Source: Eubacteriales bacterium (lineage in GTDB: Bacteria; Bacillota; Clostridia; Oscillospirales; CAG-272). From it: a DNA stretch of 64,000 nucleotides. Shown here in pieces: positions 50,172-51,687 of the stretch. Position numbers and translations under genes: made by a program. Location of the stretch: assembly GCA_045542275.1 (NCBI GenBank), contig JAZQKP010000035.1:44746-108745 (forward strand), in the 5' to 3' direction. The stretch's first letter is position 1, and every line of letters starts with the position of its first letter. The notes below the pieces were generated by a model. That model was not told the DNA's origin. It saw nothing but the letters and a program-made list of their open reading frames with translations, and ran no database searches.

Positions 50172-50210
50172 ATAAAAACGGTAGTACTCAATACGAGTGC
50201 TACCTTTTTT
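50172..50210 (+). terminator. tRNA-Ser terminator; left copy of island-flanking repeat
   Basis: ATAAAAACGGTAGTACTC-AATAC-GAGTGCTACC + TTTTTT. Confidence 0.75.
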
Positions 50211-50478
50211 ATTTCCCGATAAATGAAACAGAGGGATTCGAACGGGTTGGTAGTGAATACAGTCCGGGGGACTGTAGAGCCAACCCTGACCGAGTCCGCA
50301 GACGAGAACGAATCCCTCTTCCTTTGACACAGGTACGAGAGGATTCGAACCCAGGCGTTAAGAAACTGTTCGGGGAACAGCTTTAGCCGATGACCGAAGG
50401 AGTTTTTATTAATAATTAAAGATTGTTGAAAAACTTATAGTGCTTTGGAATATAATAAGCATGAAAAAATTTTTTCTA

Positions 50479-50525
50479 TTCCAAATAAAAAAATCTATTT
50501 GGAAAAAAATCAAGTTTATTTGGAA
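50479..50525 (+). promoter_or_regulatory. candidate operator: TTCCAAATA / TATTTGGAA inverted repeat plus second TATTTGGAAAAA copy abutting the -35
   Basis: 50479..50487 pairs with 50496..50504; direct copy at 50517..50525. Confidence 0.35.
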
Positions 50526-50530
50526 AAATA

Positions 50531-50559
50531 TTGACATTTTTTAGAAATCATGTTATTAT
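50531..50559 (+). promoter_or_regulatory. promoter TTGACA-17-(TGt)TATTAT of the wHTH-GHKL-DUF4325 gene
   Basis: Read directly. Confidence 0.6.
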
Positions 50560-50592
50560 GTTTATACGATTGCATTTTATGGAGGAGAAATT

Positions 50593-51630
50593 ATGAAGGT
50601 TGTTAATCAAGAAAAAGTTAAAAATTACATTTTACGTCTTATTAAAAGCAAAAGAAAAGATTATGTAAAAGCGACAATTGAAGCCTTTGATATTAGTAAA
50701 TCCAGCGTGTATAATTACGTAAAACAAATGGAAATTGATGGATTAATTGAAAAAAAGGAAGGCGAATACACTCTTCGAACAGCCTTTTATCATTATATTT
50801 TCAAAAATGACGGAACGCTTGGCGAAGACCATGTATACAATCAATTTATATCTAAGCACATACAATTCAAAAAAAATGTAAATTCCATATGGAATTATGC
50901 TTTTACTGAAATGATGAACAATGCAATTGAACATTCAGAAGCCGAAAGCATTTCTGTAGGTATTTTCCAAAATTATCTTGAAACTCGAATTCTGATAAGT
51001 GATAATGGTATCGGTATTTTCAAAAACATTCAAAGATTTATGAAGGAAAGCAAAAACGAAACAATTTCTCTCAGCGAATGCGTATCCCTTTTGTTTGCAG
51101 GAAAGTTTACAACCGCAAAACAATATCACACGGGTGAGGGTATTTTTTTCACCTCACATATTATGGATGAATTTGTTATTTATTCGGATGATAATTTTTT
51201 CACCAGAAATAATTTTTCATCCTTGCAAATGGAGAATGAAAATTTGCATAATTTTATGAAAATGGATAAGGGAACTCTGGTAAGTATGACACTCAACAAT
51301 AATACTAAAAAGGTATTATCCGAGGTTTTTAACACCTTTGCCCCGGTTGATGAAGGTTTCGTAAAAACTACTATACCTATTGCTCATATGTTTTCGGGCG
51401 GAAACCCTGTATCTCGTTCTGAAGCAAGGCGATTGTTGGGAAGCATATCTGTATTTACTGATATTAAATTAGACTTCTCCGATGTTGATGAAATCGGTCA
51501 AGGCTTCGCCCACGAGCTTTTCGTTCTTGGAAAGAAAAAATTTCCTCACATTAATTTGAAAACCGTCAACACCTGTAAAGCGGTTGAGGATATGATAAGG
51601 CGAGTGATTAACACCGCAGCTCTTTCGTAA
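50593..51630 (+). CDS. wHTH + GHKL (HATPase_c-like) ATPase + C-terminal DUF4325/STAS-like domain protein
   Basis: N-terminal DISKSSVYNYVKQMEIDGLIEKKEG (winged helix). N-box EMMNNAIEHSEA, G1 SDNGIGIF, G2 TGEGIFF. C-terminal SRSEARRLL...LDFSDVDEIGQGFAHELF. AT-rich gene with its own TTGACA-17-TATTAT promoter. Confidence 0.65.
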   Translation: MKVVNQEKVKNYILRLIKSKRKDYVKATIEAFDISKSSVYNYVKQMEIDGLIEKKEGEYTLRTAFYHYIFKNDGTLGEDHVYNQFISKHIQFKKNVNSIWNYAFTEMMNNAIEHSEAESISVGIFQNYLETRILISDNGIGIFKNIQRFMKESKNETISLSECVSLLFAGKFTTAKQYHTGEGIFFTSHIMDEFVIYSDDNFFTRNNFSSLQMENENLHNFMKMDKGTLVSMTLNNNTKKVLSEVFNTFAPVDEGFVKTTIPIAHMFSGGNPVSRSEARRLLGSISVFTDIKLDFSDVDEIGQGFAHELFVLGKKKFPHINLKTVNTCKAVEDMIRRVINTAALS

Positions 51631-51650
51631 TATTCAGGTTTATGCGCCAT

Positions 51651-51687
51651 ATAAAAAGGTAGTACTTCTTGTGAGTGCTGCCTTTTT
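51651..51687 (+). terminator. terminator after wHTH-GHKL gene; right copy of island-flanking repeat
   Basis: ATAAAAAGGTAGTACT-TCTTGT-GAGTGCTGCC + TTTTT; same arms as 50172..50210 with a different loop. Confidence 0.7.

Follow-up and report, generated by a model that had tools for sequence, protein, structure and literature searches.

An AT-rich one-gene cassette behind a tRNA-Ser(UGA) gene in a candidate tandem array of small recombinase-less integrative units

Defence islands commonly hold accessory genes that lack an integrase and lie between long repeats, and the arrival of these genes is mostly unexplained. Tyrosine integrases reportedly integrate into tRNA genes at T-loop or anticodon-loop sublocations. 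Folded single strands can also serve as recombination sites, as in integron attC and the CTX-phi attP(+) hairpin, and IMEX-type elements encode no recombinase. Cis-mobilizable elements (CIMEs), which derive by decay from an ICE or IME, are without genes for integration or transfer; they accrete next to other decayed units at the 3′ ends of tRNA and other genes, and their cargo is exchanged between species (Pavlovic 2004; Bellanger 2011; reviewed in PMC5704250). Restriction-modification units can insert with a long target duplication, which in some cases involves tRNA sequence (Furuta, Abe & Kobayashi 2010, PMC2853133).

We analyzed a locus behind a tRNA-Ser(UGA) gene in a 64-kb window (the whole stretch of DNA under study) and compared it with 30 metagenomic tRNA-Ser loci, as well as with tRNA-Met and tRNA-Glu loci that carry homologs of its cargo gene (Table 1). 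Among described systems, it comes nearest to accretion of the CIME type and to insertion with long target duplication, and the locus is a relic of a known kind, formed from unusually small, folded, tRNA-matched units. As in CIME accretion, the units lack integration and transfer genes, are stacked in tandem and hold cargo that is exchanged between species. However, these units are far smaller (0.1–1.4 kb), and no ICE, IME or prophage was found that could be their parent. Each has its own terminator and inverted tRNA arm, often together with a folded core that is conserved, and loci at three different tRNAs share the same cores. With the class of Furuta et al., the locus shares low-GC accessory cargo, the lack of a mobility gene and direct repeats of more than 30 bp at the 3′ end of a transcription unit. 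It differs in that the cargo is a regulator, while that survey asked for R and M genes in the insert, and in that the flanking terminators are not copies of one target in several related loci. Islands of tyrosine integrases resemble it in that a block of identity from the T-loop or anticodon loop to the 3′ end is repeated at the far end of the insert and the tRNA stays intact, but here no integrase lies in or beside the insert and there are extra inverted arms.

Table 1. Features of the tRNA-Ser(UGA) locus, in window coordinates
Feature	Position	Strand	Description
Promoter of tRNA-Ser unit	49881..49909	+	Near-consensus, extended -10; TTGACA-17-TATTAT with TG, 11/12 matches
Leader	49923..50082	+	About 160 nt; starts with tRNA 5′-end copy (GCAGGAATAGC), ends CCTGCAT
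tRNA-Ser(UGA)	50083..50170	+	Array anchor; ARAGORN; Rfam tRNA 53.8 bits
Repeat copy 1	50164..50210	+	TGCGCCA (50164-50170) plus terminator T1
Terminator T1	stem 50180-50204, T-run to 50210	+	Next to tRNA-Ser
Module A	50230..50323	+	Inverted tRNA arm AGAGGGATTCGAAC (50230-50243), conserved folded core, degenerate tRNA 3′ half with direct arm CGAATCCCTCTTCCT (50309-50323)
Module B, 5′ part	50338..50401	+	Inverted arm AGAGGATTCGAACCC, then GCGTTAAGAAA-hairpin-TTTAGCC...GACCGAAGGA
Laterally exchanged cassette	50404..51642	+	Promoter, putative operator, gene; 1,239 bp
Palindrome with third half-site	50479..50559	+	TTCCAAATA-N8-TATTTGGAA; overlaps cassette promoter
Cassette promoter	50531..50559	+	Near-consensus, extended -10
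Cargo gene	50593..51630	+	345 aa, sole gene of cassette; winged HTH, SpoIIAB/RsbW-like GHKL ATPase and STAS-like DUF4325 domain (Pfam)
Repeat copy 2	51643..51687	+	TGCGCCA (51643-51649) plus terminator T2; EamA promoter directly 3′
Terminator T2	stem 51658-51682, T-run to 51687	+	
EamA transporter gene	51758..52636	+	Resident right flank; Pfam EamA 3.6e-45; 71-78% aa identity in L001-L004

A first-pass annotation had reported that the tRNA-Ser terminator recurs on the far side of an AT-rich islet. Comparison of the two stems bore this out. The 5′ stem arm (GGTAGTACT) is the same in T1 and T2, a single A-to-G change in the 3′ arm gives a G-U pair, and the loops are unlike. The tenth stem pair is also changed to a wobble, and the predicted folds are −19.5 kcal/mol for T1 and −19.4 kcal/mol for T2. 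The bracket is a real repeat, but it is longer than the terminator alone, since both copies open with TGCGCCA, the final 7 nt of the tRNA. The copies are identical at 38 of 46 aligned positions with one gap, a length above the 30 bp that defines long target duplication. Their local alignment score was 50, compared to 27 for the best alignment anywhere else on either strand of the window, and none of 5000 shuffles scored 50 or more. The 3′ end of the tRNA was the anchor in all 30 metagenomic tRNA-Ser loci. The repeat begins inside the tRNA, 7–21 nt from its 3′ end, in the window, in L002, L004, L098 and L115, and in the tRNA-Met loci L086 and L125. Besides the two copies of the direct repeat, the window holds a longer copy of the tRNA tail, which forms the direct arm of module A.

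The islet had also been called AT-rich. This is true of the cassette, whose GC content (31.2%, against 41.8% for the window) lies at the 3.7th percentile of equal-sized windows, but not of the 190-nt stretch that precedes it, which is GC-rich (51.5%). L002, a locus of another species at the same tRNA, contains the cassette with 94.4% nucleotide identity over 1,240 nt, while the flanks are 75–78% identical. Synonymous third-position divergence between the two was 0.095 for the cassette, 0.447 for EamA and 0.398 for GH4, a difference of approximately 4.5-fold between cassette and flanks. The junctions and the flanking terminator of L002 differ from those of the window. In two assemblies, an identical cargo protein is encoded behind tRNA-Ser with unlike left flanks. 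Judged by its sequence, the cassette is foreign DNA acquired horizontally, and together with the real repeat this upholds the original view of an inserted islet.

As annotated, the cassette has one gene with its own promoter close to consensus. The Pfam matches of the protein include HATPase_c and HATPase_c_2, which belong to the Bergerat (GHKL) ATP-binding fold. Its AF2 model (pLDDT 81) gave SpoIIAB/RsbW as the best Foldseek matches (1til, 1l0o and 6m36; TM 0.64–0.78). PADLOC returned only weak matches at the level of the winged HTH, and NCBIfam only sub-threshold matches to histidine-kinase ATP lids. The protein corresponds to phrog_3364. Homologs form ~95 clusters with 74–94% identity, and both phage contigs and defence islands contain them. 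Of 8 distinct contexts that were examined, 5 place them beside tRNA-Ser, tRNA-Met (twice) or tRNA-Glu. The closest fold of the GHKL domain and the presence of a STAS-like domain recall partner switching by SpoIIAB/RsbW and SpoIIAA/RsbV. In contrast to that system, the kinase-like and STAS-like parts are fused behind a winged HTH in one chain, the protein has no sigma factor partner (no sigma factor gene is adjacent), and the family is a mobile accessory gene, phage contigs included. The palindrome at the cassette promoter is kept upstream of the homologs in L002, L084, L086, L124 and L125 and is probably the auto-operator of the winged-HTH protein. The protein, which combines winged HTH, SpoIIAB-like kinase and STAS-like parts, is probably an auto-regulated accessory regulator or sensor of the phage-host conflict kind.

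The stretch between T1 and the cassette had been set down as tRNA-fragment debris. Instead, alignment with related loci identifies it as two members of recurrent structured module families. These are types A and B, and relatives add types C and D. Module A (predicted fold −42.8 kcal/mol) is 95.6% identical in L004, and its core is also found in L002 and L102 with covarying stems; in the window, GCGCCA and the terminator are absent from its end. Module B is complete in L004, L115 and L114, and the same core lies behind tRNA-Glu in L124; in the window, the cassette replaces its second hairpin and direct arm. The module B hairpin is 96.7% paired with 5 of 6 pairs compensatory, a result that none of 500 shuffles reached. 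On their right-hand side, the modules consist of degenerate 3′ halves of a tRNA, which are scars of the attR type. Several of the covarying hairpins resemble plain terminators.

Module cores were found behind tRNA-Ser, tRNA-Met and tRNA-Glu, with arms that match those tRNAs. The arms of L125 and L086 match one another and a different tRNA-Met allele (GCTCC), not the local tRNA (GGTCC). Since these arms match a foreign allele, they travel with the unit. Rfam matched none of the modules in 13 loci at E<0.1, and the only matches in the window were tRNA and Gut-1. A covariance model of module type C found no copy away from tRNA genes in ~1 Mb of loci. By analogy with attC and CTX-phi attP(+), pairing of the two inverted arms could produce a duplex that replicates the chromosomal target, and the part between them keeps structure more than sequence. 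However, no link to IntI or Xer was found and there is no R″/R′ core motif, complementarity of the arms is often imperfect, and they can have cargo between them. The likeness to single-strand recombination is an analogy. Integron cassettes were rejected, as no IntI appeared among the domain families listed for the window and the tRNA-derived arms (AGAGGGATTCGAAC / CGAATCCCTCT) do not fit RYYYAAC...GTTRRRY cores. IS200/IS605 PATEs, IS110 bridge-RNA elements, retrons, T-box-like tRNA sensing and tRNA-primed reverse transcription do not match the geometry of the arms either, and no cognate enzyme gene was present, which makes them speculative.

The terminators were compared between filled and empty sites. 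L100 and L113 are without any insert, and L004 has the tRNA and modules but not the cargo gene; the search for empty sites thus succeeded in relatives, although none was recovered from the window's own lineage. The empty-site terminator of L113 corresponds to the distal terminator of L103 (42/44), L112 (51/56), L117 (54/64) and L109 (43/56), whereas the proximal, tRNA-side terminator of these four loci is unrelated to it. Therefore, the proximal terminator came in with the unit and is not a duplicated target. T1 has an identical copy in L004 and a near-identical one in L115. Both of these loci contain complete tandem units, each bounded by CCTCTTCCTGCGCCA and a terminator, with repeats that match at 83/90 and 38/38 positions, and the L115 array mixes two terminator types. 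Three cores are stacked in L004, in L115 and in L002; the window has A, then B with the cassette, then T2. T2 is a unit boundary, either the head of a next unit or the ancestral terminator.

Other loci had longer repeats. L098 contains a 140-nt unit within a perfect 49-nt repeat (49/49), for which L100 is the matching empty site; in this pair, a single-copy site resembles the repeat, as a target duplication demands. The L086 repeat is ~125 nt, and the repeats of L098, L086 and L004 (49–125 nt) span the terminator and more. Logan contigs from four gut metagenomes break at the repeats, and they contained no unambiguous empty site, circle or excision junction. They did reveal strain variants, with T1 itself in the place of T2 (X1), another module B following T2 (X4), or the junction of L002. 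L107 was considered as an insertion into a terminator loop, but the 3′ half of the terminator is absent downstream, indicating replacement and not an insertion targeted to the terminator.

We searched for a recombinase that could have mobilized the units. None was found in or beside the insert, whose single ORF is the wHTH-GHKL-STAS gene. No integrase or transposase domain was found in the best 25 of 42 families for 30 downstream ORFs of the metagenome tRNA-Ser loci, or in the best 25 of 70 families for the 44 other ORFs of the window. As no tyrosine or serine integrase gene appeared next to an att site among the families listed, an island or prophage with a tRNA-targeting integrase was rejected. 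Scanning viral contigs with the 18-nt tRNA tail gave only chance matches, in high-GC phage genes.

A model that accommodates most of these data, and that we consider likely on balance, is that small integrative units without a recombinase form a tandem array on the 3′ end of tRNA-Ser(UGA), and that the bracket is the repeat found at the junctions of this array, not a duplicated terminator target. A unit would open with a copy of the tRNA tail (7–21 nt) and an intrinsic terminator, often followed by an inverted copy of the tRNA T-loop and T-stem. Its body would be either a cargo gene or a folded core that is non-coding, and it would close with a degenerate direct copy of the 3′ portion of the tRNA, at which the next unit would begin. 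The window would then read as the tRNA, unit 1 (T1 and module A, its tail truncated), unit 2 (the 5′ part of module B, the 1.24-kb AT-rich cassette and TGCGCCA), T2 and the EamA promoter. We infer that units entered by site-specific recombination in the segment from the tRNA T-loop to the 3′ end, and that the recombinase came in trans, from another element or from the host, in the way that cis-mobilizable elements accrete. The proximal terminator would be the unit's own head, in the manner of attP, and truncation and nested insertion would have come afterwards. Ordinary attL/attR scars leave the inverted tRNA arms and the conserved, covarying cores unexplained, the long repeats of L098, L086 and L004 fit a long target duplication equally well, and no integrase-bearing relative of any unit was found among viral contigs, the 30 metagenome loci or protein contexts.

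The contrary possibility is that the cassette entered without a site-specific recombinase and that the 46-nt tail and terminator of the host tRNA were duplicated on insertion (Nobusato 2000; Furuta 2010), for instance by Campbell-type homologous integration of a circle already carrying the segment or by another mechanism. A repeat above 30 bp around low-GC cargo with no mobility gene is consistent with this, as are the L098 repeat with its L100 counterpart, the length of the L086 repeat, the occurrence of tRNA-containing repeats in the published class (PMC2853133), and L002, which flanks the same cassette with its own, different type of terminator. A restriction-modification island 2 kb away would be a second case: it lies within an 85-nt, 99% identical direct repeat that contains a terminator, so the geometry is indeed alike, as first described. 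Since that repeat is unrelated in sequence and without tRNA, the shared route that had been suggested holds only generically, as insertion at the 3′ end of a transcription unit. We nevertheless regard the duplication of a host segment at tRNA-Ser as unlikely. In L103, L112, L117 and L109 no terminator was duplicated, T1 behaves as unit-borne in that it is shared with L004 and L115 even though their EamA is only ~72% identical, and neither the two terminator types of L115 nor the foreign tRNA allele in the L125 and L086 arms is expected. Targeting of the terminator itself, as proposed in the first-pass annotation, would require an element that, like group IIC introns, recognizes the hairpins of intrinsic terminators, and that duplicates them when it enters. 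Group IIC introns have intron RNA domains and a reverse transcriptase, and they insert just behind a terminator hairpin with no copying of gene sequence. The flanking repeat does contain a terminator in each of the two AT-rich islands of the window. However, the repeat always begins within the tRNA, insertions occur with heterologous, non-duplicated terminators (the four loci compared with L113), no unit lies behind the terminator of tRNA-Thr, the window's other tRNA, and no Rfam intron match, reverse transcriptase or other mobility function was found, making this reading very improbable.

A different explanation is that the modules are resident functional noncoding RNAs of the tRNA-Ser unit, such as 3′ trailer RNAs, decoys or processing elements, with repeats from local tandem duplication and a gene that landed by illegitimate recombination. 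Covarying stems next to invariant unpaired motifs, G-U wobbles on the tRNA-sense strand and the terminator after each module would fit such RNAs, which would be undescribed given the lack of an Rfam family. One metatranscriptome contig matches 64 nt of module A perfectly, but it is of low depth and could be DNA carry-over. This explanation also has to contend with modules that come and go among close relatives in shuffled order, that remain ~95% identical across species whose genes are ~72% identical, that have the same cores with swapped arms behind three tRNAs, and whose covarying hairpins in several cases look like terminators, and we consider it a long shot. That T1 and T2 are alike by chance, through the shared composition of GC-rich stems with U-tracts, is an option that the first-pass annotation had allowed for. 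Given the alignment and shuffling scores, the shared tRNA tail and the same architecture of tRNA tail and terminator in eight other loci, its probability is negligible.

If the array units are mobilized in trans, they would rank with the smallest known integrative elements and would give single accessory genes a simple way to spread among gut Clostridia. A bolder and doubtful proposal is that the small folded modules are an undescribed class of gene-less or one-gene mobile cassettes, in which the exchangeable antisense and sense arms (T-loop to 3′ end of the host tRNA) are a targeting device and not scars. As folded single-stranded DNA or RNA, they would form, or pair with, a replica of the tRNA end and so steer a trans-acting recombinase of the host or a helper, and the AT-rich gene would be a passenger loaded into module B. 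Were arm swapping between tRNAs the targeting mechanism, it would represent a new kind of programmable insertion. Even a conservative reading corrects the annotation, as the supposed debris is both structured and conserved, and the second terminator marks the boundary of a unit. The locus and its relatives also form a compact, comparable series of empty sites, gene-less units of 100–200 nt and one-gene units on the same 20-nt tRNA anchor.

Lastly, we compared the tRNA-Ser transcription unit in L001, L002 and L004. The leader, which had no Rfam match, is shorter in L002 and missing from L004. In L001, tRNA-Ser is cut in the anticodon loop and adjoins a replacement tRNA-Ser.

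The terminators T1 and T2, which bracket the AT-rich insert behind tRNA-Ser(UGA), are both good intrinsic terminators (fold energies -19.5 and -19.4 kcal/mol) and share their stem arms, as the first-pass annotation had stated. Their similarity begins earlier than first reported, with the tRNA's final 7 bases, TGCGCCA, standing before both; including these, 38 of 46 aligned positions are identical. Comparison with both strands of the window revealed a score of 50 for this repeat versus 27 for the next best, and no shuffle out of 5000 scored as high. A single AT-rich gene with its own promoter does lie between the terminators. 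The description as AT-rich holds for the cassette (31.2% GC, compared to 41.8% for the window) but not for the 'debris' 3' of tRNA-Ser, which is 51.5% GC.

This chromosomal stretch comes from an uncultured member of the Clostridia from gut or rumen. EamA has its closest relatives in ruminant-gut Clostridia MAGs, and the region's DNA is also present in gut metagenome runs.

Features of the region and of related loci (window positions unless a locus is named)
Feature	Position	Remarks
atp operon, GH4 glycosidase, deaminase	left end of region	minus strand
Gut-1 matches	45630-45703 (+); 49135-49205 (-)	53.7 bits; 47.4 bits
Near-consensus promoter of tRNA-Ser unit	49881-49909
Leader	49923-50082	~160 nt, between promoter and tRNA-Ser
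tRNA-Ser(UGA)	50083-50170
T1, then 'debris'	between tRNA-Ser and AT-rich gene	~190 nt, GC-rich
Module A; module B 5' part	50230-50323; 50338-50401	within 'debris'
Cassette	50404-51642
AT-rich gene, then T2	gene 50593-51630	own promoter
EamA, GH43 (minus strand), R-M island	right of T2	in this order
R-M island repeat	53761-53845; 57559-57644
Third low-GC stretch	~59600-61400
Motif GTTCGACTTTCGT	L004 3-15; L086 6042-6054; L087 1591-1603; L125 3358-3370	directly before distal tRNA-tail copy
Neighbourhoods of cargo homologues: Pycsar pair (PycTM + cyclase); GmrSD-type gene; endolysin gene in 2 viral contigs	L084 6498-7784; L126 834-2855; L088 6857-7642; L089 1966-2652

The R-M island (3.8 kb, 30% GC) is bracketed by an 85-nt direct repeat, 99% identical, that contains a bidirectional terminator, lacks tRNA sequence and shows no relation to T1/T2. 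The third low-GC stretch is the sole other in the window besides the cassette and this island. The Rfam Gut-1 RNA motif (gathering score 50) is matched twice, in the atpG-atpD spacer of the ATP synthase operon and behind the deaminase gene, and Gut-1-like arrays of GTGATAT or GTTATGA words plus hairpins occur within tRNA-linked arrays of two other loci (L004, L125). The first part of the tRNA-Ser leader duplicates the tRNA 5' end; the leader closes with CCTGCAT and is flanked by a 13-nt repeat, ATATGCAGGAATA. Its length varies among the closest-relative MAG loci: L001 has a long version, L002 a shorter one and L004 none. This leader resembles a mirror-image insertion at the tRNA 5' end.

With the last 31 nt of the window's tRNA-Ser as query, 30 loci were obtained from metagenome contigs, to which L002 and L004 were added. 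One plan recurs. After the tRNA come a terminator and a short spacer, in many cases followed by the tRNA T-loop/T-stem copied in inverted orientation; next is either a folded core or a gene, then a copy of the tRNA 3' segment in direct orientation, degenerate and ending ...CTCTTCCTGCGCCA, and after it a further terminator, from which the series continues. We refer to each proposed small insertion (tRNA-tail copy, terminator, core or cargo, and the framing tRNA copies, or arms) as a unit. L004 carries, in order, tRNA, T1, module A, tRNA tail, a T1 copy, a complete module B, tRNA tail and a different terminator, with a repeat matching at 83 of 90 positions. L115 contains three units with two terminator types and a 160-aa ORF as cargo. 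In L098, a 140-nt unit lies between 49-nt repeats that match perfectly; the corresponding empty site appears to be L100.

The most telling comparison is with L113, where a terminator directly follows the tRNA. This terminator recurs as the distal terminator of L103 (42/44), L112 (51/56), L117 (54/64) and L109 (43/56), whose tRNA-proximal terminators are unrelated to it. Since only the distal terminator matches, the inserted unit brings its own head of tRNA tail plus terminator, and these unit-borne heads resemble an attP-like junction. Thus, the first-pass proposal that the terminator is the insertion target was not borne out: in the L113 series it is not the target, and its duplication is not required. 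L004 has an identical T1 and L115 a near-identical one, despite far greater divergence of those loci's genes, which fits T1 being unit-borne. Other gut metagenome contigs represent strains with T1 itself after the cassette or another module B after T2; these variants suggest that T2 is also a unit head. The motif GTTCGACTTTCGT, present at both tRNA-Ser and tRNA-Met loci and absent from the window, seems to be a conserved signature that marks the right end of units.

The first-pass interpretation is supported in part: an inserted island bracketed by a real repeat held up. L002 carries the cassette at 94.4% identity, likewise behind tRNA-Ser, while nucleotide identity of EamA and GH4 is only 75-78%. 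Divergence at third positions of codons with conserved amino acids was 0.095 for the cargo gene, compared to 0.447 for EamA and 0.398 for GH4, so the high identity reflects recent exchange rather than purifying selection. These comparisons show that the cassette is foreign and laterally acquired. In the window, the module B 5' part lies left of the cassette and TGCGCCA plus T2 at its right end; in L002, the cassette is preceded by a decayed terminator that follows module A, and stops ~60 nt before CCTCTTCCTGCGTCA and a diverged copy of L002's own, different terminator. An identical cargo protein occurs in two assemblies with unlike left flanks, the promoter side being EamA in L081 and deaminase in L082. 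Moreover, the tRNA-Ser block (49881-51687) is inverted relative to EamA in all three closest MAGs compared to the window. The differing flanks and the inversion indicate that this locus is a rearrangement hotspot.

The 'tRNA-fragment debris' of the first pass proved instead to consist of members of recurrent families, modules A and B. Module A is 95.6% identical in L004, and its right-hand part reads as a degenerate tRNA-Ser 3' half. In its L102 core, both stems differ by compensatory changes (GGGTTGG/CCAACCC to CATTTCGG/CCGAAATG; ACAGTCC/GGACTGT to GACGTT/AACGTC), and the unpaired motifs TAGTGAAT and TGACCGAGTC..ACGAGAAC are retained. Module B forms a hairpin between invariant GCGTTAAGAAA and TTTTAGC that is 96.7% paired over five loci, with compensatory change in 5/6 pairs (reached by 0/500 shuffles). 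In a longer module, type C (eight loci), 13 of the 29 predicted pairs have changed in this way. The G-U wobbles are on the tRNA-sense strand. Searching Rfam 15 gave no match for modules A, B or type C. As several covarying hairpins resemble ordinary terminators, covariation alone is no proof of special RNA function. One metatranscriptome contig exactly matches 64 nt of module A and a second is ~95% identical to part of the gene, a faint sign that module A and the cargo gene are transcribed.

These cores also occur at other tRNAs. In L124, the module B core follows tRNA-Glu, and its arms, CGGGAATCGA and CGATTCCCGT, match that tRNA; type C cores lie behind tRNA-Met in L086 and L125, with arms matching tRNA-Met. 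The latter arms carry a tRNA-Met allele, GCTCC, that is not that of the local gene, GGTCC, so the arms travel with the unit and are not copies of the site.

The 345-aa cargo protein contains a winged HTH, a GHKL ATPase nearest in fold to the anti-sigma kinases SpoIIAB/RsbW (Foldseek TM 0.64-0.78; AF2 model pLDDT 81) and a STAS-like DUF4325 domain. A palindrome, TTCCAAATA-N8-TATTTGGAA, overlaps its promoter and is kept upstream of homologues, from which we infer that the gene may be autoregulated. The family comprises ~95 clusters in the 74-94% identity range, with numerous further ones near 53%. In five of eight distinct genomic contexts, homologues lie beside tRNA genes (Ser, Ser, Met, Met, Glu); of the others, one adjoins a Pycsar system, one adjoins GmrSD and one has no nearby tRNA gene or recognised defence gene. 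Relatives at 44-46% identity in two viral contigs adjoin an endolysin gene, a typical moron position. The protein is a putative accessory factor, a regulator or sensor of the type seen in phage-host conflict.

Integrase, transposase and reverse transcriptase domains were absent from the best 25 of 42 families for 30 ORFs downstream of the tRNA in metagenome tRNA-Ser loci, and from the best 25 of 70 families for 44 other window ORFs. The genes downstream of the tRNA in other loci are diverse, and some are defence-like (AAA_15/AAA_21, HEPN_Apea).

The best-supported explanation, which we consider probable, is that integrative units lacking a recombinase accreted in tandem at the 3' end of tRNA-Ser, as occurs with CIMEs (PMC5704250). 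The cassette would be one laterally acquired passenger of the resulting array, the T1/T2 pair would be unit boundaries, and an enzyme supplied in trans may carry out site-specific recombination. The main rival, insertion with long target duplication (PMC2853133), agrees with L098 and L086 and with the R-M island nearby but does not fit the L113 series, and we regard it as rather unlikely. Less likely still are modules that are resident ncRNAs, which would account for the covariation but leave the presence/absence pattern, shuffling and arm swapping unexplained. Terminator homing, contradicted by the L113 series, is very improbable, and chance likeness of T1 and T2, contradicted by the shuffles, has next to no probability. 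Since inverted arms and retargeted cores fit no standard model, there is room, at a low probability, for a new class of tRNA-end-targeting mini-cassettes.

Behind tRNA-Thr (16480-16720, minus strand), a terminator and a GATGTG/CATCAC word array with GC hairpins follow, with no tRNA-tail units. In the first 420 nt after the L102 tRNA, the module A core is nested in a type C module that itself has a further insertion, and in L002 (5440-5640) a ~170-nt insert replaces the module A inner hairpin. In L096, ~150-300 nt past tRNA-Ser, a type C 3' arm corresponds to a second tRNA gene ~100 nt downstream (…GAATCCTAGTTCCGCAGCCA) instead of tRNA-Ser, suggesting recombination between units at two tRNAs. 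Finally, in L001 (5415-5850, minus strand), a cut in the anticodon loop (…GGTCTTGAAAA|TTTGCAG) interrupts the ancestral tRNA-Ser, and ~130 nt past it lies an intact, different tRNA-Ser(UGA) with another acceptor stem; this arrangement resembles the footprint left by an event that targeted the anticodon loop.
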